Origin: Botryllus schlosseri
Taxonomy: Eukaryota
NCBI GenBank assembly: GCA_051294905.1
Contig: CM119372.1
Span: forward strand, 12,588,001 to 12,648,000
Reading direction: 5' to 3'
DNA length: 60,000 nucleotides
Translations under genes and position numbers: made by a program
Notes under the pieces: generated by a model
What the model saw: the letters and a program-made list of their open reading frames with translations, nothing else
The model's database searches: none
Told to the model about the DNA's origin: nothing
In this document: one piece after another, positions 6,157 through 59,890 of the stretch
How positions within the stretch are numbered: position 1 is the first letter of the stretch
Layout of the letters: each line of letters begins with the position of its first letter

Positions 6157-6505
6157 TTTTTTCAATTATTTCTACCATAATGCGTAATGTAACCAGACAT
6201 GGGGTAATCGCGATTAGTAATCGTAATCGATTACGACGATTACAGCATTTTCAAGTAATCGTAATCGCAATCGATTACATTCGAAAAAATTCCGAAGAAA
6301 TCGTGATCGTAATCGACTACTTCTCACATCTAATCAATTTCTTTGTGAAAGAGCGATTCGTTTTTATTTGTACAAGGACTACGAGATTAACTCAACATTC
6401 GTGAACAAGGAAAAGATATTATACCAGGTTGGTGATAGCACAAACGTCTGATTTACAAACACCACTGCTCATTATCACGTCAGTAGTATAAAAGATCGCT
6501 CGTGA

Positions 6506-6965
6506 GGTGGCAGGGGTTCTTATGGGCGGGGTGGCATGGTGCCGTGAAACCGGGGGTGGCATGGTGACCCTTATGTCTTATGGCGGGGGTGGCATGGTGC
6601 CATTGTGTCTTATGGCGGGGGTGGCATGGTTACCTTTTCGGGTATAGGCTGCGGCGGCATGGTGCCGAGAAACCGGGGGTGGCATGCGGCTATTTCGTCT
6701 TATGGCGGGGGTGGCATGGTGCCATTGTGTCTTATGGCGAGGGTGGCATGGTGACCCTTATGTCTTATGGCGGGGGTGGCATGGTGCCATTGTGTCTTAT
6801 GGCGGGGGTGGCATGGTTACCTTTTCGGGTATAGGCTGCGGCGGCATGGTGCCGAGAAACCGGGGGTGGCATGCGGCTATTTCGTCTTATGGCGGGGGTG
6901 GCATGGTGCCATTGTGTCTTATGGCGGGGGTGGCATGGTTACCTTTTCGGGTATAGGCTGCGGCG
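6506..6965 (+). repeat. Subterminal GC-rich tandem repeat (about 30-bp monomer, 187-bp higher-order unit); mirror at 20788-21247
   Basis: Recurring TCTTATGGCGGGGGTGGCATGGT. The block starting at 6571 recurs at 6758. Confidence 0.9.
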
Positions 6966-8904
6966 GTGACTCGTAATGAAAACTCGGGGTCGTGAGTCGT
7001 ACTTTCGGATGGGCCCGCTCGCACATCGCCGTGAAAACTCGTGTTGGCATATCGCGCTTTTAGACCCCCCCCCTTCCGCTCGCACATCGCCATTGGTTCT
7101 TATGGGTGCGCTCGCATGTCGCACTTTCGGGTATAGGCATCTCTCGCACATCGCATGGAAAACTCGTGGTGGCACATCGCCCTTTCGGGTAAAGGCACCT
7201 CTCGCACATCGCCCTTTCGGGTAAAGGCATCTCTCGCACGTCGTACTTTCGCATGTCGTGCTTTCGCGTATAGGCTGTGTTGGTGATTCACCATGTGTTC
7301 TTATGGGTGCAGTCGTGAATCGTACTTTCAGGCATCTCTCGTGCGGTGTTGAATAGTCACCAACAATAACCGCACAAACGGAAACGTGGCTTGCAAGAGG
7401 ATTAAGCAGTGCGTGCGACCTATATTTCGAATGACCTGCGCGCTGAATTGTTTCCGTGCAGTCGTGTGCTACTATCGATTATTACACTAGATCAGTCAGT
7501 GTGAAATAGTTTGCTAAATCTAGGAATCAGTCGCATGGTGTTACTTTAGTAATTAGTTTACCACAGAGCCGGCGTAGCCGGTGATTCGAATACCGACAAA
7601 TTTTCACTTATTTCTGACCCAACCCTAATCCTCTGTGAAGTTGACGCTTATTCAAAAAGGTGTGAAATAATTGTAAAATCCTAATCCGAAACCGATTATT
7701 TCGACTTTGGCGTAGTGCGCATTGAAATAGGATTGACAAACATGACTAGCAACTTCCCCCACAGTCCCGTTTCGATATTATACACACACTGATTTGAAAC
7801 AAGTAATGTAACATTACAACTCTATTCCCGATCCAGCTTTCCGTTTGTCAAAGAGACATTTTAACATCTTACCATACTCAAAAGAATTATTCACAACATT
7901 ACCAATTGTTAAAAATCTAGTTTTCACTTACTTGATTATATCATAATGTTTCGGGCATAACCATTTTTAGTGACTTGGTGTTAAAGACATACCGATCGCT
8001 CACAAGGTAATATTTCGGTAATTAGTTTACCATAGAACCGGCGTAGACGGTGATTCGAAAACCAACTATTTGACGCTTTCTGGTGCTTGCTATATGTTTG
8101 TACACTTCGAACGTGGTGGACTTTAGTTGCGTGATAAGAATATTCAAGCAACGTGTCAATTTGTCAACTCGAAATGAAACTTGCTACACAGCTCAAGTTG
8201 ATTCGTATCTGAATGTGTTAATTCGGTACAATTCTAATTATTTTGAGAAATCTTTTCGTGATCTTTTGATTCGACCGTAACCTGAATATTACTGACACCG
8301 ACTTTCAGCCACATTGAATTATTCGCACATTCCGCGCCGCTGTTTTCACACCTATAGAATCAATACCAACTATAACTCTACAAGAATCAAGAATCACATA
8401 CGTATGTGCATTATACAGTTATTGTCTTTATTAACTTGAAATCAAACTCTTAACAAAACACCCATCTTATCGCTCGTCAACTCTATCATGAAAATCCTCG
8501 AGTCCTTATCATCAAAAATGTTATAGCGCGGCGTCGGAATCCATTCGTGGGATGTACTAAAGATAAATCCAGATAATCCAAAATGAAATATTTGGACTTT
8601 GACATAGTCTGAATCGAAATATATTGACAAACATGACTACCAACTTTGATCCAGTCACATTTCAAGATCGTACTTTGAAACAATCCTTGAAACTTACAAC
8701 TCTATTCACGACTGAGTTTTCCGTTTACCAAATAGAGTTTCAGTAAATACTATCGCGATATTTTAATGTGTTACTACACACAATAGAATCAATCAATGAA
8801 ATAGCACCTGTTGTAAATATTTCTAACTTGACAGCCACTTGTGCATACCGCGATCGACTTGTGACGCGGTGAGTTAAATCGAAATATTTCAATCTATTTG
8901 TCGA

Positions 8905-9243
8905 GGGGAAGCGAGTGGCGCAGTTGGTTAAGCGCCAGCGTCACGACACCAATGGCTGTGGTTCGGAGGTTTATCTGGGCTCCTCATCGCTAACCTCACT
9001 GCAATAGCAGTGTCTCAAAAAGCCCAGTATGATGGTGAGCCGCGCCAGTACTAAGTCGGCAGTAAAGAAAAGTCCGGATGCATGAAAGAGAGAGAGACTG
9101 ACGCTGGAAGCGCGCGAGTGTGAAAGTCGTCCGGAATGAATACGAAAAGCAAAGAACCTGAACATTACTAATATCATTGTCGTGGTGTACATGACCTTAA
9201 TAGGCGATAAACACCACTGTTGTATGTGTGAAATAAACCAAAC
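8905..9243 (+). mobile_element. tRNA-derived SINE (339 bp) inside the left arm
   Basis: A-box TGGCGCAGTTGG (8916-8927) with D-stem GCGC/GCGC, B-box-like GGTTCG at 8960 and 3' tail AAATAAACCAAAC. Perfect 15-bp TSD CAATCTATTTGTCGA (8890-8904, 9244-9258). Confidence 0.8.
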
Positions 9244-11829
9244 CAATCTATTTGTCGAAACCTTGAACAAACTAGCAGGTTATTTTTTGTTGCAATCGAG
9301 TGAACGGAAATAGTATTACGGCTCAACAATTTTAACATCTTCCCATACACAAAAGAGTAAAATACAAAAAGCCTTGTCAAGTCAATCCGTTTGTAACTTA
9401 CCCAACCAAAGCAAAAAGTATCCTTATGAAAAGTAGACAAGACTACGCGAGTAATCACCACACTCCAAAATCCATAGCAAGTTCGGTTGTAGTCATATAC
9501 CGCCAAATCGTATTTTTATTTGTTCAACTGTAAAAGTCGTTACTATTCTGTAAGATAAAGTAATTACTACTCGGTATATTTTATAAACCAAAGTAAATAC
9601 TACTCGGTGTGTGGTTTGAGATTAACATATTACATTTGAGTATACCGGATTTGAATGTCTGACCAACGTAGTTGAGAATTCATTTCTTACAATCAAACGC
9701 CGGTGTTACATTGAAAGGTATCATACTGTAAACATAAGGATTGACACATTGATTTGATATATGAGATTTTGTAATGTTCGACCACGACTTGATTATTAAA
9801 TTATTCACGATAATTAGACCCGGTGTTGTGGTAAAGGTTATTAGAAAATATCACTTTTGGCATCGAGTACCAGTCGAAGTGAGTGAACAATACTTAATCC
9901 TTTCAGTGACTAGCTGTTGTACGTGCTAAATGTAAAACATTACGAGGTTAAACTCTAAGACTTTGATCAGCACAAGAGCAATTTGGAATATCTTTACTGG
10001 CTGCAACCTATTCTACTAGACAAAACTCGCAGCATTAATAAAATCAAAATATGTGCTACACTGAAATCTACAAAATGTGTTTGTATTGTTGCTAGTAGCG
10101 ATCATGCATTATCATTTGAATCTTCTAAAGTAATTGTAATGATAAAACCAAACTACTCAAAGTCATTACCAACACAAAAAACGATTTCTATGATATTCGT
10201 CAAACGCATCATACCTCAGTATGCAGAAATTATTTGTAGAGTGCATACCAACAAAGAAATCAGGAACACAACCAACACCGAAAATGATAAATGCGTTTCG
10301 CGTTACTATTGATACAAGTTCATTTCTATCGGGCGAAATAAACACCACCACAAAACTCAGAGCATGCAAAGGTCTTGATTGATGTGAATTTCGATTTGTG
10401 TCTTATGATACCAGCAAGCATTTTGGAAATATTATGACTCGTTAAACCAAAGTCGTATGTCCGATTATTAATTGATTGGAAACTTGATCACGTACCTCGA
10501 TCATTACAGAGGAGTATAACACCATTGTCCGACAATCTTTTACAAAAGGATCGAAACCAAGTAACCCAAAGTCGTTGCCGTCGCATAAACAATTTGTACG
10601 ACGTTTGATAAATGTACCCTATACTTTGGTGTACTAGAAATATTTGTAAAACACACTCTGGTAAAGAAATCGAAAAGATATCCTACACCTAAATCTGATA
10701 AAACCATTTTGCACTTTTTGTTCGTCAGTAGTATCCATTTGAGCATGCGAATACCATGTGTAAGTCCAGCACAATTGCGGTATCCATCCGAGTTTAGTTA
10801 ACACAAATTTATTACAACGGAGTCACGTAAACTTTCGTGAAAGAAAAGCATACTCACTCCTAGAGGGTTATGTCAATGCCATAGCAGTTCCCCAACAACA
10901 AAGTACATATGTTTTCTAGTCACGGTCCTTACATCTTTCACATAGATCAATCTACTTTGCTAACGAAAAGTGCTGAGTCATCACATGATCGCTCTCACAA
11001 CAAAACAGCTAGTAGATATTATCATTCAAAATATTCCTAACCCTTTACACACCAGTAACAAATCATACAACGAATATGTTTTGTGGGTTGAATTGCTGTT
11101 CAGTGTCAAGTCTACCTGTTGAAACGTACATTAAAACAACACAGTCACAATCAAATTAAAACCACGAATCTATTTTCATTTCCTCGCAAACTGTCACATA
11201 CAGAAAAATAAATTTAATTTCCCAAAACATACTTGTAACCAATCGCTTTCATTAAACATACAACACCATAATAGTATTTACTTTCTACAACATAGACATT
11301 CCGGTGTAGTCAAGAAATATTTTTAATAATCAAAATCATCGACTTCTGTTTACGGTGTTAGTGTGTGCATGTCATACATGTGGGCCCGTATTAAAATGGA
11401 CACGACACGACTGACTGTAAGGAGATAGAAGTCTATCGCATAGATTTACATGTGGTCTTCGCTACGGTTTCAAAAAACGAATCATCTCTTTTGCATTGAT
11501 CTAGACCGAGCAAGTTAGTTAATGGCCATGATTGTGTTTGTCATATGCGAATGATAGGGTTACTGTCAAATCTACATACAACAATCTTCTGACGATCATA
11601 ATAGCAATTTCATTTTCCTCCCCTTCATAATTGTACAACTCGGTAACTACGTTTAACAAGACCAATCACACTACCAGCGTTGAACACAAGATACCTACCC
11701 AAGTAAAAATATCATTCTGGTTTGGACAACTGACGTTTACCTGTGTAAAATTATCATTTTCACTTGGAGGTCCACCGTTACCTAACTAAAATACCATTGT
11801 CCTTTGGGGATTTATCGTTTACCCAGTGT

Positions 11830-12262
11830 AACAATCCCCCTTTCACTTGGAAATATATTTTTGACCTGAATAACAAACCCCCTATCACTTGGAAATATAT
11901 TTTTGCCCTGGATAACAAACCTTTTTCACTTGGAAATATATTTTTTTCTCTTGGTAACAAACCTTTTTCACTTGGAGATATATTTTTTCTCTGGGTAACA
12001 AACCTTTTTCACTTGGAAATATATTTTTTCTCTTGGTAATAAACCTTTTTCCCTTGGAAATATATTTTTTCTCTGGGTAACAAACCTTTTTCACTTGGAA
12101 ATATATTTTTTCTCTTGGTAATAAACCTTTTTCACTTGGAAATATATTTTTTCTCTGAGTAACAAACCTTTTTCACTTGGGAATATATTTTTTCTCTGGG
12201 TAACAAACCTTTTTCACTTTGGAATATATTTTTTCCCTGACCAACAAACCATTTTCACTTGG
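11830..12262 (+). repeat. 41-42-bp tandem array, about 11 copies plus degenerate flanking copies
   Basis: Unit AACAAACCTTTTTCACTTGGAAATATATTTTTTCTCTGGGT. The CACTTGG core or a one-base variant occurs at 11844, 11886, 11927, 11969, 12010, 12051, 12092, 12133, 12174, 12215 and 12256. Confidence 0.95.
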
Positions 12263-13614
12263 TGGGTCGTCGTTGACCTTAGTAAAAATATCATTTTCCT
12301 TTGGAGATCCGGCGTTTACCAGTGCAACAATACATTTTCTCTTGGTCATCTAACTTTTCCTAGAGTAACAAAAACCATTTTCATTTTGAAATCTGACAAA
12401 CACACCTGACAATTTGGTATTTGTTGTATTGACGATAGTTTGAAATAGATTACAACGAGCAGTGACGGAAATATACACGGACTACCGGTTTCAGAGTATA
12501 CCTCCATCAGTCGTATCACATCAATATCATCGGTTAACCACATACAATATCCTCTTGTACACAGAAATGCATGTTTCGGAAAATTGGACAATAGACTTCG
12601 ATAGTTCTGTGATGTCCAGGTTCACGCTTTGGATTTTCCAGAGTCAAAATGTCTGAATAAAACACCTCCTCGACGATGGTTGGTATGTGGATAACGGTGT
12701 TCGGAAAACGGTTGTATTTATGTCACCCATCGCGATAACAATTCCAGGTCGATTTATCCCCCGCGTGTTTACTATATTGTGTCTTTATTGGTCAATGTAT
12801 GTCTCGACATTCAGTTTGAAATCGGAAACCCTGATAAAGTATGTAACCGGATCCGGATATCAATTCTGAATCGATAAACCAATGAACAATATTCAAAGTA
12901 AACATGTTACATCCTGTGTTTCCACGAAAAAATACCATCCAGACATACGTCGCGCTTGTTTACCCACAACAGTATACGCGTAAATGGAGGTGTGTGACAT
13001 TGCATGCAATGTGTTGGTATACAAACATCGATCCACAGACATTAACATAGCCGGTAGTTTTGATGTAGATCGAATGTCATCACACCCGATAACAATGTCA
13101 TACCAATAAGCCACATTGCAACGACTCTGAGTCAATCTGAAGCAGGACATACAGACACACAAACATGGAACCGTAACATGGGTTATTCGCACGACAGTGA
13201 AAGTGAACTGTACAGTACATACCAATATTGTGATCACAGTCAAATATGCGAACCGTGCACAATCATATACCCAGGTTTTTGTTGGATATGTACGAAACCG
13301 ATAAATCGATACATTTCTTTTCCTTTGACGTCAACAATACAATCACCATTCCAATGTATCGCTCGAATGTGAGGTTCATCTGGTGTAAAATCCATGTCAA
13401 ATAACACCAAAGTGTGCTTTCCGTGTTTTATTATTTCAACCGTCGCTTCTTGTCTGTGTCGTAACACTATGGTGCAGGGACTTGAAAAACGGTGGATTGT
13501 GAAACGGATTGACATGACCAACAGAATCGACGTCAATAGACTTGTTACGATGTCGTTTCAAAATGCTCCGATGTGACGAGCGCAACCTCGATTTATTGTG
13601 GCGATGACCGTTTC

Positions 13615-13670
13615 GAAATGTTACCGGACGAACTGGACCCTTGAAATGTTACCGGACGAACTGGATCCTT
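13615..13670 (+). repeat. 28-bp direct tandem duplication at the centre of the palindrome spacer
   Basis: GAAATGTTACCGGACGAACTGGA(C/T)CCTT occurs twice. Confidence 0.9.
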
Positions 13671-14973
13671 ACGATGGTGTGTTTTATGATTGTGTGTGAA
13701 ATCACGAGGCAGTGTTCTATTGTGGTATACGATTGCAGTCTTCATTCCACTGAAACACACCTTATTGGATTACAGTATCAGCCCGATATTTGCAGAATCA
13801 CTGTTCACGATATTTATCTGGAGTCGTTATGTGGGAGTAGCGACATACATTCATCGTGACTGAAAGACTGATCGCAATCATTTCGAGCACCCGTACTAGA
13901 TCAAACGCTGTAGTCTCAGCAGAAAACTTCGGTGTCGACAACACGATGGATATTGACCCATGTATCCAATTGATCTGGGACGTCTGTCCGGAGATAGGGT
14001 CATGACTATCTTGTAATGTTACAACGCGATAAAACCATCGAGTAAATCAGTAAACGGGGTCGAAATATCGATGTAATACCGCGGACTCAGAGTCGTTGCA
14101 ATGTGGCTTATTGGTATGACATTGTTATCGGGTGTGCTTGATGACATTCGATCTACATCAAAACTACCGGCTATGTTAATGTCTGTGGATCGAAGGCTTA
14201 CTCCCCGATGTTTGTATACCAACACATTGCATGCAATGTCACACACCTCCATTTACGCGTATACTGTTGTGGGTAAACAAGCGCGACGTATGTCTGGATG
14301 GTATTTTTTCGTGGAAACACAGGATGTAACATGTTTACTTTGAATATTGTTCATTGGTTTATCGATTCAGAATTGATATCCGGATCCGGTTACATACTTT
14401 ATCAGGGTTTCCGATTTCAAACTGAATGTCGAGACATACATTGACCAATAAAGACACAATATAGTAAACACGCGGGGGAAAACTCGACCTGGAATTGTTA
14501 TCGCGATGGGTGACATAAATCCAACCGTTTTCCGAACACCGTTATCCACATACCAACCATCGTCGAGGAGGTGTTTTATTCAGACATTTTGACTCTGGAA
14601 AATCCAAAGCGTGAACCTGGACATCACAGAACTATCGAAGTCTATTGTCCAATTTTCCGAAACATGCATTTCTGTGTACAAGAGGATATTGTATGTGGTT
14701 AACCGATGATATTGATGTGATACGACTGATGGAGGTATACTCTGAAACCGGTAGTCCGTGTATATTTCCGTCACTGCTCGTTGTAATCTATTTCAAACTA
14801 TCGTCAATACAACAAATACCAAATTGTCAGGTGTGTTTGTCAGATTTCAAAATGAAAATGGTTTTTGTTACTCTAGGAAAAGTTAGATGACCAAGAGAAA
14901 ATGTATTGTTGCACTGGTAAACGCCGGATCTCCAAAGGAAAATGATATTTTTACTAAGGTCAACGACGACCCA

Positions 14974-15406
14974 CCAAGTGAAAATGGTTTGTTGGTCAGG
15001 GAAAAAATATATTCCAAAGTGAAAAAGGTTTGTTACCCAGAGAAAAAATATATTCCCAAGTGAAAAAGGTTTGTTACTCAGAGAAAAAATATATTTCCAA
15101 GTAAAAAAGGTTTATTACCAAAAGAAAAAATATATTTCCAAGTTAAAAAGGTTTGTTACCCGGAGAAAAAATATATTTCCAAGGGAAAAAGGTTTATTAC
15201 CAAGAGAAAAAATATATTTCCAAGTGAAAAAGGTTTGTTACCCAGAGAAAAAATATATCTCCAAGTGAAAAAGGTTTGTTACCAAGAGAAAAAAATATAT
15301 TTCCAAGTGAAAAAGGTTTGTTATCCGGGGCAAAAATATATTTCCAAGTGAAAGGGGGTTTGTTATTCAGGTCAAAAATATATTTCCAAGTGAAAAGGGG
15401 ATTGTT
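14974..15406 (-). repeat. Mirror copy of the 41-bp tandem array
   Basis: Unit CCAAGTGAAAAAGGTTTGTTACCCAGAGAAAAAATATATTT. Same length as the left copy, with several SNPs. Confidence 0.95.
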
Positions 15407-18400
15407 ACACTGGGTAAACGATAAATCCCTAAAGGACAATGGTATTTTAGTTAGGTAACGGTGGACCTCCAAGTGAAAATGATAATTTTACACAGGTAAA
15501 CGTCAGTTGTCCAAACCAGAATGATATTTTTACTTGGGTAGGTATCTTGTGTTCAACGCTGGTAGTGTGATTGGTCTTGTTAAACGTAGTTACCGAGTTG
15601 TACAATTATGAAGGGGAGGAAAATGAAATTGCTATTATGATCGTCAGAAGATTGTTGTATGTAGATTTGACAGTAACCCTATCATTCGCATATGACAAAC
15701 ACAATCATGGCCATTAACTAACTTGCTCGGTCTAGATCAATGCAAAAGAGATGATTCGTTTTTTGAAACCGTAGCGAAGACCACATGTAAATCTATGCGA
15801 TAGACTTCTATCTCCTTACAGTCAGTCGTGTCGTGTCCATTTTAATACGGGCCCACATGTATGACATGCACACACTAACACCGTAAACAGAAGTCGATGA
15901 TTTTGATTATTAAAAATATTTCTTGACTACACCGGAATGTCTATGTTGTAGAAAGTAAATACTATTATGGTGTTGTATGTTTAATGAAAGCGATTGGTTA
16001 CAAGTATGTTTTGGGAAATTAAATTTATTTTTCTGTATGTGACAGTTTGCGAGGAAATGAAAATAGATTCGTGGTTTTAATTTGATTGTGACTGTGTTGT
16101 TTTAATGTACGTTTCAACAGGTAGACTTGACACTGAACAGCAATTCAACCCACAAAACATATTCGTTGTATGATTTGTTACTGGTGTGTAAAGGGTTAGG
16201 AATATTTTGAATGATAATATCTACTAGCTGTTTTGTTGTGAGAGCGATCATGTGATGACTCAGCACTTTTCGTTAGCAAAGTAGATTGATCTATGTGAAA
16301 GATGTAAGGACCGTGACTAGAAAACATATGTACTTTGTTGTTGGGGAACTGCTATGGCATTGACATAACCCTCTAGGAGTGAGTATGCTTTTCTTTCACG
16401 AAAGTTTACGTGACTCCGTTGTAATAAATTTGTGTTAACTAAACTCGGATGGATACCGCAATTGTGCTGGACTTACACATGGTATTCGCATGCTGTGCAC
16501 ATATACAAACTTTTGTGTAAACAACTCTGATGTTTCTGTTAGTACTAGTTCTGTGTTGAACTATTTGATTATTAAGATACATGAACACCCCTTCAGACAA
16601 TAAAGGTCTTGTGATATCGAAACAGTTTGTAGAGTCTAACCAACCATTCTTTAGTTTTGTAATGCGAGAATATCGAGTAAAGTTAATTACTTAGTGCGAT
16701 GTTAATATCCTTCGTACTTTTGTAAGAGTTGTGGGGTAACATACAAAGTAACTAATTGACACAAACAAAATGGTGATATTATGAAGATGATGCCGCAACA
16801 ACACAGCAAGTAATATTTTGTATCGGGTGTTTGTACTTTGGGAATAGCGGAGTGTGCGATATTTTGGATATGTGTGCACGGTTGTAAACTACGGTTGTTC
16901 TTGGGTCTTGCGTCGAGTAAATCATAACTATGTCTAGAATTCAAACACATCCAAGTAAGTTCTTTAGCGACTATGATTACATTTACTTTGACGAGAGGAA
17001 ATGGAAAAATTCAAATGGATACTACTGACGAACAAAAAGTGCAAAATGGTTTTATCAGATTTAGGTGTAGGATATCTTTTCGATTTCTTTACCAGAGTGT
17101 GTTTTACAAATATTTCTAGTACACCAAAGTATAGGGTACATTTATCAAACGTCGTACAAATTGTTTATGCGACGGCAACGACTTTGGGTTACTTGGTTTC
17201 GATCCTTTTGTAAAAGATTGTCGGACAATGGTGTTATACTCCTCTGTAATGATCGAGGTACGTGATCAAGTTTCCAATCAATTAATAATCGGACATACGA
17301 CTTTGGTTTAACGAGTCATAATATTTACAAAATGCTTGCTGGTATCATAAGACACAAATCGAAATTCACATCAATCAAGACCTTTGCATGCTCTGAGTTT
17401 TGTGGTGGTGTTTATTTCGCCCGATAGAAATGAACTTGTATCAATAGTAACGCGAAACGCATTTATCATTTTCGGTGTTGGTTGTGTTCCTGATTTCTTT
17501 GTTGGTATGCACTCTACAAATAATTTCTGCATACTGAGGTATGATGCGTTTGACGAATATCATAGAAATCGTTTTTTGTGTTGGTAATGACTTTGAGTAG
17601 TTTGGTTTTATCATTACAATTACTTTAGAAGATTCAAATGATAATGCATGATCGCTACTAGCAACAATACAAACACATTTTGTAGATTTCAGTGTAGCAC
17701 ATATTTTGATTTTATTAATGCTGCGAGTTTTGTCTAGTAGAATAGGTTGCAGCCAGTAAAGATATTCCAAATTGCTCTTGTGCTGATCAAAGTCTTAGAG
17801 TTTAACCTCGTAATGTTTTACATTTAGCACGTACAACAGCTAGTCACTGAAAGGATTAAGTATTGTTCACTCACTTCGACTGGTACTCGATGCCAAAAGT
17901 GATATTTTCTAATAACCTTTACCACAACACCGGGTCTAATTATCGTGAATAATTTAATAATCAAGTCGTGGTCGAACATTACAAAATCTCATATATCAAA
18001 TCAATGTGTCAATCCTTATGTTTACAGTATGATACCTTTCAATGTAACACCGGCGTTTGATTGTAAGAAATGAATTCTCAACTACGTTGGTCAGACATTC
18101 AAATCCGGTATACTCAAATGTAATATGTTAATCTCAAACCACACACCGAGTAGTATTTACTTTGGTTTATAAAATATACCGAGTAGTAATTACTTTATCT
18201 TACAGAATAGTAACGACTTTTACAGTTGAACAAATAAAAATACGATTTGGCGGTATATGACTACAACCGAACTTGCTATGGATTTTGGAGTGTGGTGATT
18301 ACTCGCGTAGTCTTGTCTACTTTTCATAAGGATACTTTTTGCTTTGGTTGGGTAAGTTACAAACGGATTGACTTGACAAGGCTTTTTGTATTTTACTCTT

Positions 18401-18509
18401 TTGTGTATGGGAAGATGTTAAAATTGTTGAGCCGTAATACTATTTCCGTTCACTCGATTGCAACAAAAAATAACCTGCTAGTTTGTTCAAGGTTTCGACA
18501 AATAGATTG

Positions 18510-18848
18510 GTTTGGTTTATTTCACACATACAACAGTGGTGTTTATCGCCTATTAAGGTCATGTACACCACGACAATGATATTAGTAATGTTCAGGTTCT
18601 TTGCTTTTCGTATTCATTCCGGACGACTTTCACACTCGCGCGCTTCCAGCGTCAGTCTCTCTCTCTTTCATGCATCCGGACTTTTCTTTACTGCCGACTT
18701 AGTACTGGCGCGGCTCACCATCATACTGGGCTTTTTGAGACACTGCTATTGCAGTGAGGTTAGCGATGAGGAGCCCAGATAAACCTCCGAACCACAGCCA
18801 TTGGTGTCGTGACGCTGGCGCTTAACCAACTGCGCCACTCGCTTCCCC
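18510..18848 (-). mobile_element. Mirror copy of the tRNA-derived SINE inside the right arm
   Basis: Reverse complement of 8905-9243 with the same TSD. Confidence 0.8.
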
Positions 18849-19019
18849 TCGACAAATAGATTGAAATATTTCGATTTAACTCACCGCGTCACAAGTCGAT
18901 CGCGGTATGCACAAGTGGCTGTCAAGTTAGAAATATTTACAACAGGTGCTATTTCATTGATTGATTCTATTGTGTGTAGTAACACATTAAAATATCGCGA
19001 TAGTATTTACTGAAACTCT

Positions 19020-20200
19020 ATTTGGTAAACGGAAAACTCAGTCGTGAATAGAGTTGTAAGTTTCAAGGATTGTTTCAAAGTACGATCTTGAAATGTGACT
19101 GGATCAAAGTTGGTAGTCATGTTTGTCAATATATTTCGATTCAGACTATGTCAAAGTCCAAATATTTCATTTTGGATTATCTGGATTTATCTTTAGTACA
19201 TCCCACGAATGGATTCCGACGCCGCGCTATAACATTTTTGATGATAAGGACTCGAGGATTTTCATGATAGAGTTGACGAGCGATAAGATGGGTGTTTTGT
19301 TAAGAGTTTGATTTCAAGTTAATAAAGACAATAACTGTATAATGCACATACGTATGTGATTCTTGATTCTTGTAGAGTTATAGTTGGTATTGATTCTATA
19401 GGTGTGAAAACAGCGGCGCGGAATGTGCGAATAATTCAATGTGGCTGAAAGTCGGTGTCAGTAATATTCAGGTTACGGTCGAATCAAAAGATCACGAAAA
19501 GATTTCTCAAAATAATTAGAATTGTACCGAATTAACACATTCAGATACGAATCAACTTGAGCTGTGTAGCAAGTTTCATTTCGAGTTGACAAATTGACAC
19601 GTTGCTTGAATATTCTTATCACGCAACTAAAGTCCACCACGTTCGAAGTGTACAAACATATAGCAAGCACCAGAAAGCGTCAAATAGTTGGTTTTCGAAT
19701 CACCGTCTACGCCGGTTCTATGGTAAACTAATTACCGAAATATTACCTTGTGAGCGATCGGTATGTCTTTAACACCAAGTCACTAAAAATGGTTATGCCC
19801 GAAACATTATGATATAATCAAGTAAGTGAAAACTAGATTTTTAACAATTGGTAATGTTGTGAATAATTCTTTTGAGTATGGTAAGATGTTAAAATGTCTC
19901 TTTGACAAACGGAAAGCTGGATCGGGAATAGAGTTGTAATGTTACATTACTTGTTTCAAATCAGTGTGTGTATAATATCGAAACGGGACTGTGGGGGAAG
20001 TTGCTAGTCATGTTTGTCAATCCTATTTCAATGCGCACTACGCCAAAGTCGAAATAATCGGTTTCGGATTAGGATTTTACAATTATTTCACACCTTTTTG
20101 AATAAGCGTCAACTTCACAGAGGATTAGGGTTGGGTCAGAAATAAGTGAAAATTTGTCGGTATTCGAATCACCGGCTACGCCGGCTCTGTGGTAAACTAA
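19020..20200 (+). pseudogene. Two decayed tandem paralogous ORFs of unknown family within the element (mirror at 7553-8733, - strand)
   Basis: KVGSHVCQ/(fs)IYFDSDYVKVQIFHFGL versus EVASHVCQSYFNAHYAKVEIIGFGL. C-termini QIVGFRITVYAGSMVN* (stop 19729-19731) versus KFVGIRITGYAGSVVN* (stop 20198-20200). Confidence 0.6.
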
Positions 20201-20787
20201 TTACTAAAGTAACACCATGCGACTGATTCCTAGATTTAGCAAACTATTTCACACTGACTGATCTAGTGTAATAATCGATAGTAGCACACGACTGCACGGA
20301 AACAATTCAGCGCGCAGGTCATTCGAAATATAGGTCGCACGCACTGCTTAATCCTCTTGCAAGCCACGTTTCCGTTTGTGCGGTTATTGTTGGTGACTAT
20401 TCAACACCGCACGAGAGATGCCTGAAAGTACGATTCACGACTGCACCCATAAGAACACATGGTGAATCACCAACACAGCCTATACGCGAAAGCACGACAT
20501 GCGAAAGTACGACGTGCGAGAGATGCCTTTACCCGAAAGGGCGATGTGCGAGAGGTGCCTTTACCCGAAAGGGCGATGTGCCACCACGAGTTTTCCATGC
20601 GATGTGCGAGAGATGCCTATACCCGAAAGTGCGACATGCGAGTGCACCCATAAGAACCAATGGCGATGTGCGAGCGGAAGGGGGGGGGTCTAAAAGCGCG
20701 ATATGCCAACACGAGTTTTCACGGCGATGTGCGAGCGGGCCCATCCGAAAGTACGACTCACGACCCCGAGTTTTCATTACGAGTCAC

Positions 20788-21247
20788 CGCCGCAGCCTAT
20801 ACCCGAAAAGGTAACCATGCCACCCCCGCCATAAGACACAATGGCACCATGCCACCCCCGCCATAAGACGAAATAGCCGCATGCCACCCCCGGTTTCTCG
20901 GCACCATGCCGCCGCAGCCTATACCCGAAAAGGTAACCATGCCACCCCCGCCATAAGACACAATGGCACCATGCCACCCCCGCCATAAGACATAAGGGTC
21001 ACCATGCCACCCCCGCCATAAGACACAATGGCACCATGCCACCCCCGCCATAAGACGAAATAGCCGCATGCCACCCCCGGTTTCTCGGCACCATGCCGCC
21101 GCAGCCTATACCCGAAAAGGTAACCATGCCACCCCCGCCATAAGACACAATGGCACCATGCCACCCCCGCCATAAGACATAAGGGTCACCATGCCACCCC
21201 CGGTTTCACGGCACCATGCCACCCCGCCCATAAGAACCCCTGCCACC
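20788..21247 (-). repeat. Mirror copy of subterminal GC-rich tandem repeat
   Basis: Recurring ACCATGCCACCCCCGCCATAAGA. Confidence 0.9.
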
Positions 21248-22507
21248 TCACGAGCGATCTACTATACTACTTACGTCAGAAGTATTAGTATCGCTCATGA
21301 TTGCGTAAGAAGTATCCACACACTGTAAATCGATATTCGACGTACATTGTAGTGTGATTGTAAGAACACATGCCGTGCGACATAACATGTTATCGCAACA
21401 CTCCAGACGCCATCTATACCTCGCAGCAGGAAAATAATAAGCATTCTGCCTAGTTGCAAATGGTAACTTATGTATTGATGTTTAGTTAAAGGTTATGCTT
21501 GTAGTTAAACGCAGTTTGTCTGTTTGTGTTGGGCGAGCAGCAGGCCTATATGTAGCAGGGCTTTGGAACCGAAGCCCGAGCAAGGAGTCGGAGCCCCAGA
21601 GCCGTGCATTTTTAGCGTAGCCGGAGTTCTACATAAAATTCAAGTGGAGCTGGAGCCGATTATTTGAACGGTAGCTCCGGCTCCGATGTATTTCATAAGA
21701 TACTTGTGCTTTTACTAATCGTTGAATTCACATAATTTTACGATAATCGTTCACAAGATTAAGAATTGTTGCCTCGCTGTCACCACATTTTCTATCTACC
21801 CAGTAACCAAGTTCATACATAGGCACCAAAACTGGGTAAGCTGAATTTGCCGCGCTTACTCCGTATTTACTTTATTATGCCTATACCCGCAAGTTCGTTT
21901 TCAGCACAACAACGATGGCCAACTGTGTGGTACGAAAAATGATAAGAACCATGCCTGTCACAAAACGGGATTGCTGCTTATGTGAGCTGAGCAATTTACC
22001 TACGAATATATAAGCGACGCCAGCGAATAAAAACGTTAGCTTGCTGCACATTTCGACTTGGAGGCGCGCATATGCCGCACGCCGAGAAACATCGTCTCCA
22101 TTCTGAATTGGATGAGCAAATGCACGACCTTGGTTGATAGTTTTTTAATCCTAGCGCCAAATTGGACAGTATGTTATCGTTTATGCCTGCGAATTGAAAT
22201 TCATTACAGCGCATGATCGTTTATTCCAATCACGATTTGCGAACGTAAATATAGGGAAACGAATCGAAGCAGCCCAGATCGCTATCATAGTCCACACACA
22301 ATTGTCGGGATGCGAGCTGGTCAATGAGATGTCCGAACCCGGCCCTGGTGTTGAATATAAGAGGGCAATTAGTGATTGGATGCGCGCTTTCCAATTTGTA
22401 AACATCAATTTTGTGTATCCATTCCTGTCGGCTTGATACACTAGTATTCTTTAATTGTCGCGCAATGTCACTTGCGAGCTTGCAGTTTAATTAGGTACTG
22501 TGTACAC

Positions 22508-34870: not shown

Positions 34871-36534
34871 TCTGATACTCTGTTTATATAGCTCAAAAAG
34901 AGTTCGTGTATCATCTAAAAATAGTACATTGAACGCTCTCGTATTCGACATTTCGTGCTGGTGACGTCATATTTTGTGTTACGATTGTTGATATACGCTG
35001 TTCTTTCGAATTCTCTACTAGTTGCTGACGATTACCCCTGACGAGTGTCAGCCGAAAATATTCGGGTTCATTTTAATATGAATATGCTATTCAATTGTAT
35101 ATTGAAGTTCTGTACCTCAAAGAAGCTGTTCTTATATAGCTCAGTGCTCTGATTCCACTGCGACTCAAAGCTCCGAACTCAACCCTGGCATCTAGCGGTT
35201 CTGTAACTTATTTTCTGCCGCTGAAAAGTGTCGCTGTAGAGCCTTCTTATCTTCTGAAGAAATTCTTGTAAACTACGCAATGAAGGAGAACGGCAGCGGG
35301 AAGCGTAGTATGAAGTTTTCATGAAGGGTTATTGTTCAGAATTTGAATCATCAGCAGCGAAGTGTAACTTAATGATGCAAAGTGATGCTCTCATAGTTTG
35401 ATCAAGTTCACTTCATAAAGATAGTATCTAGTAGTGTTAGTTGAATAGCGATAGTCAGTTGGCGACCGAGGTAGTATCGATTGCTTATCGCAACGCTATT
35501 GATATCATATTTGAGTAATTACCGCATTATGTATTTCACCTATGCCCCGTGTCTTAACCTGTCCGGCTATCCCTGTTTATTCGCGTAGTGTTTCACATAT
35601 TAAAAAGAAATAACATTAGCTAGCCTACTGAAATTCTATTAAAATGTATCGTACTTCGGGTATGGTCATAGGTGAATCTTTGATCTACTTGAAATTTCCA
35701 GCTTTTCTTTGTATTGATGCATTCATCATTCATAGACTCCCTTGTAAGTCTACTGTACAGACTGAGTGCAGTTCCCTGCAAAGATTGAGACCCATTCCTA
35801 TGCATCGCAACTCATAACTTCGCACCTTATCTAGTAAACGGCTGTCATTCGTAATTCTCATGTCATTCCAACGTTTTCCGTTAACATACCATGTGATCCG
35901 ACGTATGGAATCGGTGTCTCGTGCACAACAAAGATTCTATTGACTACACACAGGTGTGATGCTGAGAACCGTCTTTGCACACTACATATATTACGCCAAA
36001 CGTACCTGAATTCCAACCCGGCATATAATTCATATGCACTTCGGATATTTCAATTCAATGATATAGAAGCTTCACATCAATATGGCAAACACGAGAAAAA
36101 TATGCAAAAGAGACTGTTTCTACATGAACTGAAGGAATCTATGTTGCATAGGCCTAGTGATTGATTGTTGAACTTGGTTACAGTGCACTTAATGTGCTGC
36201 TCCGTTCCAGTTTGCCAATGCTAAGCGAAGTCACTTGATAACATTACTTGATGATGCGAAAATCCTGCACTGCTCGTGTTACAAGATATGATTTCGAAAT
36301 ACATTGTCTATAGGGATTTTATCGCGTGTACAGTAGCCTACATTATTTTTGTGTTTCATTTCAGCAGGAAGGAATTTGTTCTCAAAATTCTTGTCTACTG
36401 CTCCTTACTCTGCCTGTGCCACTGCTATGATGATATAAGTAGACTGCCATTACTGAATTGACCCTACTTTTGCAGCTTTTTCAATTCCGTAGTCCCCACG
36501 ACAATTCTATTCCGCACGTCCTGGTCTGCCCACT

Positions 36535-37806
36535 ATGCAGACGAGGAGAAAAAGACCGGTCCGTGAGGCGTCCAAGGCCGCTGCACCGCCCTCTAATACA
36601 GGCAAGAAAAAGCCTCCAGTGAAATGCATTGTCAAGCCTCCTCCCATCAAAAAACGCAAAAAGTCAAAAAGTTCAGCGAACGAGACTAGTGCCAAAGAAA
36701 TTGTTGAAACCGTTGACACCGTTGTATCGTCGGCACCAGACAAAGCTTTGGAAGAGAAATTACAGGCAGCGCCGCCTGCTACAAAGCCTAAAAGACGAAG
36801 GCGCAAATCATCTACAAAACCCCGTAGAACCAAAAGAAGTCCGTCATTGTTTTCACCTACCTACAAGATACCAAGCCATTCTGAAGAGGAGGACGGTGAA
36901 GATGAAACCGCCTTGCCGCCAAACACGGAGTTAGAGGAACAGGTACCTGAAGTCTCGTCAACAACCGGCGAGCTCGAAACGGTCCCAGAGCACGGAGAAA
37001 CGGAATCTGCGGATCCAAAGGATAGCAGCGGTATGATGACAGCTTTGGAGGAACCTGCATCGTCTCCGGATATCACTCCTCAAGATATTCAAAACGCAGA
37101 GCCGGATTTATCTTACCTTCAGCCCGCCGTTCCCAACGCTTCTGCGAATTACGACGCAGATTGGGAGGTCTTCGATCCGTTCTTTTTCATCAAGCACCTA
37201 CCTCCTTTGACAGAGGAGCAGCGATCTAGGCAACCGGCATTACCGCTAAAAACAAGAAGCTCCCCAGAACTTTCGTTAGTTCTTGACTTGGACGAAACAC
37301 TAGTGCACTGCAGTCTTACCGAGCTGCCAGACGCGGATCTCACTTTCTCTGTCCTATTTCAAGGGATCATGTATCAGGTGTACGTGCGCACCAGGCCGGA
37401 TTTCGGCGAATTTCTGGAGAGAATGTCAAAGTTCTACGAAATCATTCTGTTCACGGCGTCGAAAAAAGTCTACGCCAATAAGTTGCTGAATATGCTAGAC
37501 GGGGAGAAGAAGTTGGTGAAGCACCGACTGTTTCGCGAGCATTGCGTCTGCGTGCAAGGGAATTACATCAAAGATCTCAACATTCTCGGCAGGGATCTCA
37601 GCAAGACTGTAATCGTGGATAACTCCCCGCAGGCTTTCGCTTATCAGCTGTCTAACGGAATTCCGATACTGAGCTGGTTCTCCGACAAATCAGACAGGGA
37701 GCTGCTGAAACTGGCCCCCTTTCTGGAATCGCTCGCAGTTACCGGCGGGGACGTCCGGCCTAAAGTCAAACAGAAGTTCCGTCTCCATGAACTGTTACCC
37801 CCGTAA
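36535..37806 (+). CDS. CTDSPL2: CTD small phosphatase-like 2 (SCP4; FCP1/NIF HAD phosphatase), single coding exon, 423 aa
   Basis: Motifs [107 protein letters not shown] and C-terminal FRLHELLPP. Basic/acidic disordered N-terminus. Acceptor-like TTTGCAG ends at 36475. Confidence 0.97.
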
Positions 37807-40029: not shown

Positions 40030-43000
40030 ATGGAGGCAGATTCTGTTGGACTGGCTGGCTGGATTACCACTGGGCAGCAGTACGTTCTTCATTCCGTACA
40101 GGCGTTGAAGAACAGGTACGTGGATTATGTGGACAAAAATCCGGAAATGATAGCGCAGGTATGTCGACACTCTAATCACTAATGCGTATTACTGAAAATC
40201 CCCATTCCTATCCCAGATGGAGAAATTGCTGACAACAGTGTCGTACGTCATTGAATATCTACCGCAAAATTATGACAATTTCGTACTTGTCTCGGAGTTA
40301 TGTGAGTGCATTGTACATCTGTGATTATATATTTGATCAGTGCCTTGTAACCTTAGACCAGGGCCGGCCAACCCATGGCCCGCGAGAAGGTTTTGTGTGG
40401 CCCGCGAGGTAATTTCCGAAATTATTAATATCAAAAATGGATTGCACAGATTGTGAACTTGCAAGGCCAAACAAAAATTTGATTAGTCTTGCCGCAACAC
40501 TTGAGATGTGATGACTAAAATATCAGTTCCAAAGCATTGGCAGATCCATGAGCCTGTCACATTTTGGTAGATCTTAGTACACTACCATCAAGCAGAATAA
40601 TTTACGATAAATTTATCAAAAGTAAAATTTTCTACACGCTTCGTGCAACATGTTGTCACTCGATTTCTTGCTTTTAATATTGTTACCCCTTTGTGAAAAT
40701 AAAAGAACGACTAATGTAAGAGATTGAGTCTAACTATATTCGCGATTACGAGACAAAGTGTCGTTCAAGATATGCGACCTTGCGTTTGCGCTCGCTGAAA
40801 GACCGTCTACTATATGAAACCTAGGCACAAAATGATTGGCGCACGTTGGTCGAAGCTTTCGATATCGATATGTCCAGGCGCCGAATAGTCCATTCCTTGC
40901 AAACTGAGCCCAACGATATACAGCATGCCCGCATTATAGTCAAGTTACAATAGTATTGACCCATGAACTTCGAAAAATTTTCGCGCTTGGCGTGGCTAGT
41001 GGCCTGCGCAATAGTTCGTCAATCAAATGTGGCCCTTTGGCTGAAAAGGTTGGCCACCCCTGCCTTAGACAGTTCATGGCAGCTGTGCGATTTTACCGCT
41101 ATTTAGTTATCACCAGTTAAGCAGTCTGATGTATAATGATATGCAAACAATCCCGAAGACATGAGACTTCATGAAAAAAAGTTGTTACGGGCATTATTTC
41201 TACGAGTCCATTACTATATTACGGTACCCCTTTCATAAGCATCTTTTGATCGTAAACAGTTTCATAATAAATTTGATCAAAGATTAGCCTCTGTACCCTT
41301 TGTCGTAAACATTTTGTTAATAAATTTGATTGGGGACTTCTAACCATTAAGCATCGAAATTATCGGCACAGCAATTTCAGTAGCTAATGACCACAATTAT
41401 TTTCAATTACCTAGTATTTCGACGTATTTATTAGAGCTTCATTTTGTGGCAGACGTGTTGCATCATTGTGGCTTTGTACCTTGTAGGCTGTATAAGGGCT
41501 GTTCAAAAATAACCTTTTTTCCTGAATCTTGCAGGTTACTTGATTAAATCGTTAGGTTGCCTTAAAAAACGACGCACACCAAATTTGAATTCATTCCAAC
41601 CAATATTCGCGGATTTCGTAGAGTTTGAAAATTTTGAATTTGCCTAAAAATGCAAAAAAAAAAATTTTTCAAATTTTCCTTTCAACCTGATGAAATTGTT
41701 GCGCTGTCTTCAAAAACGATGGAAAACAAATTTGACTCAATTCCAAGCTGTAGAAGCGGAGTTATTCAAGTTTTTTGATGATAATTCTGGGATGATCCAC
41801 CAATCAAGGATAATCCCATAATTATCAAAGAAAAACTGAAATAACTCCACTTCTACGGCTTCGAATTGAGTCAAATTTGTTCTGCATCGTTTTTGAAGAC
41901 AGCGCAACAATGTCATGGGGTTGGCAAAAAAATGTGAAAAATTTTTTTTTTTGCATTTTTAGGCAAATTCAAAATTTTCAAACTCTACGAAATCCGCGAA
42001 TATTGGTTGGAATGAATTCAAATTTGGTGTGCGTCGTTTTTTGAGGCAACCTAACGATTTAATCAAGTAACCTGCAAGATTCAGGAAAAAAGGTTATTTT
42101 TGAACAGCCCTCGTAGCTTGCATCCACTGGTAGGTCATAAGAAAGAACATTTCACATAAAGACAGCTCTAGTATGAAATGTTACAAGCGTGTGCATGTGC
42201 AACTGTACAGTGCATCCACTCTCTTTTGTTAAGATACTGGAATATTTCCTCACCGCAATGACTCATGATGATCCATTGAATATTCTGAAACAAAGATTAT
42301 GCTCAACAGTTGCTTTCATATTAGCTGTGATTTGATGGACGTGAGTCATCAGAGTTGTCAAGGTCCATTTCTTTGTGGTATCTAACTGTGAACAACAGCT
42401 GATTCCTCGACACAGGTGTACAACTGCTCAGTGTGCCTATCCCATCAGCATGGGCTGATAACTTCAACCTTACTCGGACCATGGATATTGATTTTCAAAT
42501 TATTAGAGTAGGCCTACTTGAAAATGTTTACGTTCTTGCTACTTATCGTGGCATTTCATTACATTTGCTACATTTGCGATGAATGCATTCCCATAGACGT
42601 GGGATTCCAGGTAGTACCACCACTTATTTAGCCTTAAAGACTTGAGTGTAGGAATTTGTTAAACTCAGTGACGAGTAACACTGCTATTATAGATTTTAGT
42701 ATTCATGTATGCCAGTTTGCTGACCATGCAGTTACTATACTTTTTCCTACCGTTTCGTTTAACATGACAAGGTTTTTTAATTGACTCAACGTGGCATGCG
42801 GCCTATCTGCCTATCCTATATTATACAAAATCAAACCAGTATCATTGACTACTGGTGCAAGAATTCAACAATAGCAATTCAGTAATCATACTTGATAGCA
42901 GATAAAATCGGATTCTTAAATGATATGCTCATCTGGTCCTGTTCTAACTTCGCGATCAAAAACTGCTGTACCTTCAGCTGTGTCGTTTCTTGACCTTGCC

Positions 43001-58957: not shown

Positions 58958-59890
58958 TAGGGTTACCATCAGGGTTGTAATGACTCGAGTCATGACTCGA
59001 CTCGAGTCAGACTCGAGTCACGATTTTCGGATGACTCGACTCGACTCGAGTCATTTTCTCAAAATACGGAAATGACTCGACTCGACTCGAGTCAATCAGT
59101 GTATTGACTCGACTTGGACTCGAGTCATTGCGCATGACTCGAAGCAAGTCATTGACTCGAGATTCAGAGGGCGAAGACCGACATTTCATTGTAATTTCGA
59201 AGCCAACACACTATTGGGATTTCGTTTGTTGGTCCTGGTGCTTGAAAATGCGACCAGAAACTGCTAAAAGTGAGGAAAATTGATATATTATAAATGCGAA
59301 CCATTCAATATCACCAAACAGAGTTAGAAAAGTGGGTTTAGGGAGACTTTAACTGGAAACTGAGCAGTCAACACAATGACTTGGACTCGGACTCGAGTCA
59401 TAATACAATGACTCGGACTCGAACCTCTGTTCGCTGACTTGGACTCGGACTTGACTCGGTGGGAATTGAAAATGACTCGACTTGACTCGAGTCAAAAATA
59501 CAAAAGTGAGATTGACTTGTGACTCGGAGCCTTGTGACTTGGTTACAACCCTGGTTACCATACGTCCTCCTTTAGGATTTCTCTTCCTTTTTCAGGACGC
59601 CTAAATGTCCTTTTTTTTTGAGATTTTTTGTTAAATGTATGGCAAATTCGACTGAGATACAGTAAATCAGCACTGAAGTAGCGCTCCGGCGGCTATTTCG
59701 GGAGCCGAGCCGGAAAGTTGACTGTCAACTACCTGATAATGTGAAAAAAAATGTATTTTGGGCACTGAGCGAGGAAGTTGACCTTTTTTCAATCAACCGA
59801 AAAAATTTACCATATTTTCAAGATTTTCCTCCGGGATTTTGATTTTGAAAAAATGTCCTCCTTTCCCGATTCCAAAATACGGTAACTCTA
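58958..59890. mobile_element. hAT-type MITE whose left TIR is interrupted by 58970-59553
   Basis: TAGGGTTACCAT|ACGTCC...TACGGTAACTCTA. Perfect TSD AATTTACG (58950-58957, 59891-59898). Confidence 0.8.
58970..59553 (-). mobile_element. hAT-type MITE with GACTC arrays
   Basis: TIR CAGGGTTGTAA...TTACAACCCTG. Perfect TSD GTTACCAT. Confidence 0.9.

Follow-up and report, generated by a model that had tools for sequence, protein, structure and literature searches.

The terminal inverted repeats of Polinton/Maverick elements begin 5'-AG and end CT-3'. Published descriptions give Polintons a length of 15–25 kb (PMC6431247); one from Anolis is described with a 584-bp repeat and a 6-bp duplication (PMC3014272), and butterfly polintons are reported to have repeats of ~2 kb and mobile polB-less derivatives (bioRxiv 10.1101/2025.02.07.637071). 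A model in which the opposing terminal repeats anneal before pPolB replication has been cited for Polintons (bioRxiv 10.64898/2026.07.28.741278). Two further systems have similar layouts: helper-dependent adenovirus vectors, which are reported to rearrange below ~27 kb, a 15-kb vector being packaged as direct and inverted dimers (PMC4189039); and Galileo, described as having long, internally repetitive repeats (PMC3573991). The element considered here lies in a 60,000-nt stretch of the Botryllus schlosseri genome (assembly GCA_051294905.1, 495 Mb; contig CM119372.1, 40.6 Mb), referred to as the window. It occupies positions 6482–21271 (14,790 bp), with inverted arms flanking a 950-bp unique centre, and the family to which it belongs is best described as a non-autonomous Polinton with giant-hairpin architecture, real and abundant in this genome. 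Taken together with the inferred steps discussed below, the best joint explanation, at a probability of about two in three, is a large family of non-autonomous, satellite-like Polinton/Maverick derivatives.

Self-comparison of the window resolves the palindrome into two inverted blocks. The outer one (6477–10742 against 21276–17011) extends over 4,266 nt at 99.86% identity, with 6 mismatches and no gaps; the inner one (10742–13133 against 16494–14084) covers 2,411 aligned nt at 98.76%, with 11 mismatches and 2 gap openings. In total the two arms differ by 17 substitutions and one 517-bp indel; because sister copy C10 has ~514 bp at the same point, the left arm has evidently lost this segment since insertion. 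A first-pass annotation of the window had placed 13,840 of the 14,790 bp in inverted arms around a 950-bp spacer, and the comparison agrees (arms of 6,652 and 7,188 bp, 98.8–99.9% alike). The features of the element and its insertion site, including an open reading frame (ORF) for a protein of 91 amino acids (aa), are:

6194–6481, forward strand: left part of the host repeat, a high-copy interspersed repeat that resumes at 21272 and continues to ~21575
6476–6481, unstranded: CACGTC, the left-hand copy of the 6-bp target-site duplication, differing from TACGTC at one base
6482–13133, forward strand: left arm of the giant terminal inverted repeat, 6,652 bp, homologous to sister-copy arms
6482–6581, forward strand: conserved terminal core, AGTAGT ... 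GATCG ... TTCTTATGGGCGGGGTGG ..., common to the autonomous Polinton
6518–6943, forward strand: subterminal tandem array with a 32-bp unit in ~12.5 copies and a higher-order 187-bp unit, mirrored at 20810–21235
11841–12262, forward strand: 41-bp tandem array, 10 copies, mirrored at 14974–15408; at the C13 locus described below it borders the right terminal repeat on its inner side
13134–14083, unstranded: unique centre ("loop"), 950 bp, inherited among family members
13240–13515, reverse strand: conserved 91-aa ORF, orphan protein; ATG at 13515, stop at 13240–13242, frame open from stop to stop over 13243–13557
13615–13670, unstranded: 28-bp tandem duplication, ~100–155 bp upstream of the ATG of the 91-aa ORF
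14084–21271, reverse strand: right arm, 7,188 bp, the mirror of the left arm by self-comparison
16495–17010, unstranded: 517-bp segment present in the right arm only, the left arm being deleted at 10742
21272–21277, unstranded: right copy of the target-site duplication, TACGTC

No ORF in the element exceeds 179 aa. A Pfam scan of its 18 ORFs of at least 80 aa left 17 without a match and gave one sub-threshold RING, with no rve domain, and a tblastn search of the window with 14 ORFs from an autonomous Polinton of the same genome (among them a 1,295-aa pPolB, an integrase, an ATPase and a capsid-like protein) returned no match at 1e-3, so that the capsid, packaging ATPase and protease genes expected of an autonomous Polinton are likewise missing from these results; the earlier statement that no intact or recognisable Polinton gene is present agrees with both. 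The RING finger, on the strand opposite the 91-aa ORF (17.9 bits, cut-off 27), was discarded: its frame has stops in four of five copies, all except the window's own.

The element starts AGTAGTAT at 6482 and finishes ACTACT at 21271. It interrupts a repeat of high copy number (all 40 scored genomic matches at 92–94%, plus self), and since both of the uninterrupted paralogues of this repeat (2/2) read a single TACGTC at the insertion site, the 6-bp duplication is genuine and one base of its left copy has changed since. These paralogues provide the empty site that the first-pass annotation had proposed to look for in other copies of the host repeat, and they support its assignment of AGTAGT...ACTACT ends with a CACGTC/TACGTC duplication. 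Its description of the host as an otherwise intact hAT MITE (miniature inverted-repeat transposable element) is not established: the left terminal motif has no inverted partner beside the insertion, and the window copy diverges from its paralogues near the right end. AGTAGT...ACTACT ends in the 5'-AG/CT-3' form of Polintons/Mavericks are found in the window and at 15 of 15 sister loci, and 6-bp duplications, likewise as in Polintons/Mavericks, in the window, at 14 of the 15 sister loci (all perfect, and every one different) and around the nested autonomous copy. The window element and its sister copies were therefore inserted as units with a 6-bp duplication, as had been proposed from the window: uninterrupted paralogues carry the single TACGTC, and the sister loci have duplications of their own. 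The doubling of AGT at the ends would fit a jumping-back start of protein-primed synthesis. A possible weak target preference is suggested by the duplications themselves, five of 16 starting with CAC and a sixth doing so on the other strand (GGTGTG).

Across the genome, the terminal 600 bp matches many loci as facing pairs 12–16 kb apart. Fifteen such loci were retrieved as a sister sample, and 12 palindromic copies were measured. The giant-arm design is present at 11 of the 15, where the first colinear inverted block is 4.6–6.8 kb long with 98.1–99.95% identity. When the inner arm and centre were used as the query, all 40 scored genomic matches were full-length, each with an inverted inner arm adjacent. 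Left and right subterminal segments, chosen as single-copy at C13, gave 15 and 17 inverted pairs, respectively, among 40 scored matches each, against 9 and 5 unpaired matches. Merging of coordinates yields at least ~78 distinct inverted-pair loci on 16 contigs. The first-pass annotation had suggested a class of elements, to be recognised by sister copies with different 6-bp duplications, and had named sister copies that all have short terminal repeats as the finding that would speak against it; the sister copies are giant-armed as well.

The centre of the window element is homologous over its full length to the centres of C14, C2c and C9, and over part of its length to that of C10. Because the centre and both junctions are common to C14, C2c, C10, C9 and the 40 loci, the palindrome and its centre are inherited and older than the spread of the copies; the palindrome was not made at this locus. 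The same observation refutes a one-off local inverted duplication following insertion of a shorter element, a reading left with practically no weight, as the shared junctions and centre recur in the four named copies and in 40 of 40 scored matches.

It is also very improbable that the palindrome is an assembly artefact, such as a terminal repeat joined wrongly or a chimeric read folded back on itself. Palindromes are known to arise as artefacts in long-read libraries, but here 17 substitutions and a 517-bp indel set the two arms apart; the element is placed within a 40-Mb contig, where it separates the halves of a host repeat and has a duplication backed by empty paralogues; and dozens of loci on 16 contigs show the same design, with different duplications and 75–97% sequence divergence. 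Short assembled read pieces of 58–112 nt were not used as evidence, none of them bridging an arm-centre junction with 31 nt on each side.

Several individual copies have features of their own. Copy C6b (G000:C6:4775150-4788050) has a left arm 99.7% like that of C8b, a right arm 99.0% like that of the window, and flanking hexamers CACGTA and CCCGTG. It was considered as an old copy with diverged arms, and this was rejected: the arms belong to different subfamilies and the duplications do not match, so that C6b is a recombinant of two insertions, probably by ectopic recombination. The centre of C8 contains a 546-aa open frame (L013:6188-7825, forward strand) belonging to no Pfam family, within ~3.7 kb absent from the 99.6%-identical sister C2b; this block may be a nested element or cargo. 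Two terminus pairs 13–14 kb apart (G000:C14:16593629-16607093 and G000:C16:20685361-20699203) have ends nearer the autonomous type and the 91-aa ORF at the exact midpoint, and are probably further palindromic subfamilies.

An autonomous Polinton sharing the termini, another of the checks suggested with the first-pass annotation, was found at the C13 locus (G000:C13:18335500-18360800). The locus was at first read as a single autonomous element of 24.6 kb; it is in fact nested, with a 16,265-bp element inside a gene-less, non-palindromic relative of ~8.3 kb. The inner element has AGTAGT ends, an inverted repeat of ~647 bp and a GTCGTT duplication; in the outer one the repeat is 1.95 kb long and the duplication CGCGTC. 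In this genome, Polintons insert into their own derivatives. The inner element encodes a pPolB of 1,295 aa (PF03175 at 32.3 bits, cut-off 25.8), an integrase with rve domain and chromodomain (60.3 bits), and an ATPase whose matches to the A32 type are weak; a 432-aa ORF comes closest, in the Atlas, to clusters with a double-jelly-roll domain (score 0.98), which is a lead only to a capsid-like protein. Its first 100 bp align with those of the palindromic family: 58 of 101 columns are invariant over seven ends (those of the window element, four other copies and the nested autonomous element), and further blocks 75–91% identical are shared between the window and the 647-bp repeat. The palindromic family thus has what is expected of non-autonomous Polintons, namely termini homologous to those of an element with pPolB and integrase, and many copies with duplications of their own. 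The window element has retained the cis-acting Polinton termini, and no gene for pPolB, integrase, ATPase or capsid can be recognised in it.

The genome contains at least 77 loci for pPolB, many with open frames of 1,200–1,300 aa. This polymerase was first seen in sister copy C11, where its two halves gave no Pfam match and only a chance match in a PDB sequence search. C11 itself (G000:C11:3271400-3286950) measures 14,841 bp. Its 1.9-kb repeat is of the palindromic-family type, its polymerase gene has one in-frame stop and it has no integrase ORF; it looks intermediate between gene-bearing and gene-less forms.

Comparison with C13 also indicates what the arms are made of. From the outside inwards, the window arm consists of the terminal repeat, the left non-coding part of the outer C13 element and then its right non-coding part in the same orientation. 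The last of these finishes in the 41-bp array, which at C13 adjoins the right terminal repeat; the innermost 0.74 kb of the arm has no match there. To judge from this alignment, the arm is a gene-less backbone minus its right terminal repeat, with the mirror image providing the missing end. The first-pass annotation had spoken of one genome half copied back on itself, and here it needs correction: the arms comprise non-coding DNA from both the left and right subterminal regions of the 8.3-kb relative, followed by the unmatched 0.74 kb.

Long arms with internal tandem arrays are also typical of foldback (FB) elements and Galileo, which have target duplications of 7–9 bp and are related to MULE or P transposases. 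The window element could conceivably be a transposon of such another superfamily, with its own transposase and only superficially Polinton-like, but this is highly unlikely: the duplication is 6 bp long, the terminal 100 bp can be aligned with the ends of an element that has genes for pPolB and rve integrase, segments of the arms show homology to the outer C13 element, a gene-less relative of Polinton type, and the sole ORF, at 91 aa, is too small for a transposase.

The two arms of a copy evolve in concert. Over three blocks, arms within a copy are 97.9–100% identical (93.6% in the chimeric C6b), against between-copy medians of 87.5–96.5% in the same blocks. In the block beside the common centre, where arm sides can be defined by the orientation of the centre, comparison of six copy pairs gave 144 differences for which one copy is fixed in both of its arms, and no difference specific to a side; changes in one arm are therefore copied into its partner as the lineage propagates.

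The centre departs from the "gene-dead" character attributed to the element by the first-pass annotation. All 150 scored genomic matches to the 91-aa ORF cover the whole frame, at 84–100% amino acid identity, and 146 of them are free of stops, where ~56% open frames would be expected under random mutation at comparable divergence. The ratio of nonsynonymous to synonymous divergence (dN/dS) between subfamilies is 0.20–0.32, at a dS of 0.9–1.3 where synonymous sites are near saturation. Variable columns fall at first, second and third codon positions in numbers of 15, 18 and 33 among five close copies, and 37, 24 and 55 among seven; 43 of 91 aligned columns are invariant, and the ATG is conserved. 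The ORF is central in eight of the 12 palindromic copies, as well as at the midpoint of the two further 13–14-kb terminus pairs, and a search with the family profile (hidden Markov model) did not find it in the autonomous C13 element. By these patterns of substitution, the centre encodes a predicted orphan protein that is subject to purifying selection; the autonomous element has no such ORF.

The protein belongs to no Pfam family. Its only relatives in large protein collections are one 93-aa and one 91-aa protein (P0001 and P0002); no longer relatives were found. A set of 1.84 billion proteins contained one representative, and the best Atlas score (0.85) is below the level counted as a lead. 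An RNA run sampled to ~6% contained two partly fitting reads, both outside the ORF, and was not used as evidence. Upstream of the ORF, a block of ~80 bp (window 13795–13872) is the only other part of the centre that can be aligned (84%) with the distant subfamily represented by C6 and C2d, and is a candidate regulatory element.

Arms of 6–7 kb would, if transcribed, yield a perfect hairpin RNA, and they have terminal and subterminal sequence in common with the Polintons of this genome. This raises the idea of a locus exploited by the host, in which arm transcripts would fold into long double-stranded RNA and so supply the silencing of Polintons by small RNAs, the family persisting for that reason. 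Such a role is improbable: nothing in expression speaks for it, the transposon-style duplications of copies at many sites fit selfish spread, and the conserved ORF is left unexplained.

In size, the family matches the pPolB-bearing Polintons of the genome. The 12 measured palindromic copies are 13,325–16,440 bp long, and the termini of five pairs that enclose pPolB are ~15.25–16.9 kb apart, as computed from coordinates. Relative to the gene-bearing elements, the ~8.3-kb backbone has about half the length and the palindromic form 80–100% of it. The near-Polinton length noted in the first-pass annotation therefore extends to the family (13.3–16.4 kb against ~15.3–16.9 kb); a capsid packaging constraint, also suggested there, may lie behind it.

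A mechanism that would connect these observations can be outlined. A gene-less backbone with one terminus missing would have been copied back on itself, yielding a palindrome with two identical ends restored. The protein-primed polymerase of a helper would replicate the element in trans, and the helper's rve integrase would likewise insert it. During strand-displacement replication the displaced strand could snap back into a hairpin of 6–7 kb, within which repair or re-synthesis would hold the arms identical; this is the same logic as that of the panhandle thought to hold the terminal repeats of ordinary Polintons and adenovirus identical, and it is modelled on the annealing of opposing repeats before pPolB replication (bioRxiv 10.64898/2026.07.28.741278). 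Inverted duplication would also have raised the ~8-kb backbone to the size of the helper, much like the packaged inverted dimers of helper-dependent adenovirus vectors, and the loop protein would serve the element's own propagation. In its fullest form, this would make the family the first satellite of an animal Polinton/Maverick: a hairpin palindrome that has shed all genes for replication, integration and capsid, has a private loop protein, was doubled to fit the helper capsid, and has arms re-copied or mutually repaired at each round of replication. That full version is put forward tentatively, as somewhat less than an even prospect.

The same observations might have a plainer origin, in which the copies are ordinary non-autonomous Polintons with expanded terminal repeats, kept alike by chromosomal gene conversion and similar in length by descent, with no packaging or hairpin involved. 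The conserved centre and junctions do indicate shared ancestry, terminal repeats of ~2 kb are described for butterfly polintons (bioRxiv 10.1101/2025.02.07.637071), and the present data do not bear on capsids or replication intermediates. However, palindromic copies predominate, with 15 and 17 inverted pairs to 9 and 5 unpaired matches, and the non-palindromic 8.3-kb form was seen once. Layouts vary, with a first block of 4.6–6.8 kb and intervals of ~0.8–6.8 kb between aligned blocks, yet total lengths remain within 13.3–16.4 kb; and the window arms retain a 517-bp indel and 17 substitutions that have not been repaired in place. On balance this account is rather unlikely, though it deserves consideration.

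Some points count against a satellite-like family of Polinton derivatives, or against parts of it. Helper dependence, the copy-back origin, hairpin intermediates and selection on size are inferences; extrachromosomal forms, packaging and current activity are presumptive at most. Gene conversion in the chromosome could explain the identity of the arms, and common ancestry alone could give the size match. The step from monomer to dimer is a reconstruction: the non-palindromic 8.3-kb form was met with once, and a further candidate, L042, is rearranged, with no right end in the stretch. The inner 0.74 kb and the centre have no match at C13, nor does the ORF profile have a hit in the autonomous element. 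The ORF is missing from four of the 12 palindromic copies (C8, C2b, C1 and C7); because all four have perfect duplications, the 91-aa protein is dispensable in cis. The protein has no known relatives or fold, and its AlphaFold model, all-beta with a mean confidence (pLDDT) of 45.8, is not usable. Finally, genome-wide counts are lower bounds, with 40 or 150 scored of 1,200–2,700 first-look candidates.

Elsewhere in the window, a 437-aa open frame at 36493–37806 (forward strand) has a NIF/CTD-phosphatase-like domain (PF03031, 188 bits) and is probably a host gene or exon. A small foldback at 41495–42111, with two 304-nt arms 93% complementary and 9 nt apart, looks like a hairpin-type miniature element. 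Positions 54818–55200 and 59153–59556 form an inverted repeat of ~400 bp with 80% identity, 4 kb apart.

Replication and virion formation of Polintons/Mavericks in animals are still largely inferred. The strictly concerted evolution of its arms makes a family in which >90% of the element is mirror image a natural setting for testing the panhandle/hairpin model of protein-primed replication; if the satellite mechanism is correct, it would be a natural record, in eukaryotic chromosomes, of the panhandle/hairpin intermediate, and the family may also be a defective-interfering parasite of Polintons. It would likewise be a natural counterpart of the inverted dimers by which helper-dependent adenovirus vectors reach a packageable size. 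The orphan 91-aa protein, kept while all else was discarded, is a candidate handle on how helpers are exploited. More generally, an animal genome can evidently carry multi-kilobase, near-perfect palindromes in copy numbers from dozens to hundreds. This bears on genome stability, and on repeat annotation, where such elements are likely to be broken up or misinterpreted.

Among known systems, the butterfly polB-less polintons, as far as their published description goes, are like the window family in termini, inverted repeats, target duplication, loss of polymerase with retained mobility, and presumed use of a helper. The arms differ: 4.6–7 kb, and up to ~94% of the element, against repeats reported as ~2 kb in butterflies and 584 bp in Anolis. 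Compared with gene-depleted Polintons, the window family has no Polinton gene at all and a private central gene for a 91-aa protein. In searches of full-text literature no Polinton derivative with multi-kilobase arms and no satellite of an animal Polinton was found, curated repeat libraries (Repbase, Dfam) being outside that search. The foldback and Galileo elements of Drosophila resemble the family in consisting mostly of long inverted arms with tandem arrays and in that most copies have no transposase; they belong to another superfamily with other termini, whereas the duplication in the window is 6 bp and the arms are several-fold longer and derived from Polinton non-coding DNA.

Copy-back or snap-back defective viral genomes (PMC13506859) are like the origin proposed here in that a one-ended fragment is rescued by self-copying and acquires complementary ends. 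They are described mainly from RNA viruses and are not known to integrate or to found lineages; the analogy is limited to the origin. Phage satellites and virophage-associated transpovirons have few or no structural genes, use the replication and capsid of a helper, and show size relations to it; the window family is similar in its small private gene set and in its size relation to the helper on which it presumably depends.

The nearest working analogy is with helper-dependent adenovirus vectors and their inverted dimers. These, as reported, are likewise gene-less, protein-primed, linear double-stranded DNA replicons present as an inverted duplicate of approximately helper genome size, and the window element has the same plan, with two inverted copies of one segment and origin-bearing ends on both sides. 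Adenovirus defective genomes with inverted duplications were reportedly described by Daniell in 1976. The vector dimers are helper-dependent by description, a dependence that is presumed for the window family; and they are episomal products of the laboratory or of infection, whereas the window family is heritable, integrating and diversifying, with a selected gene in its unique centre.

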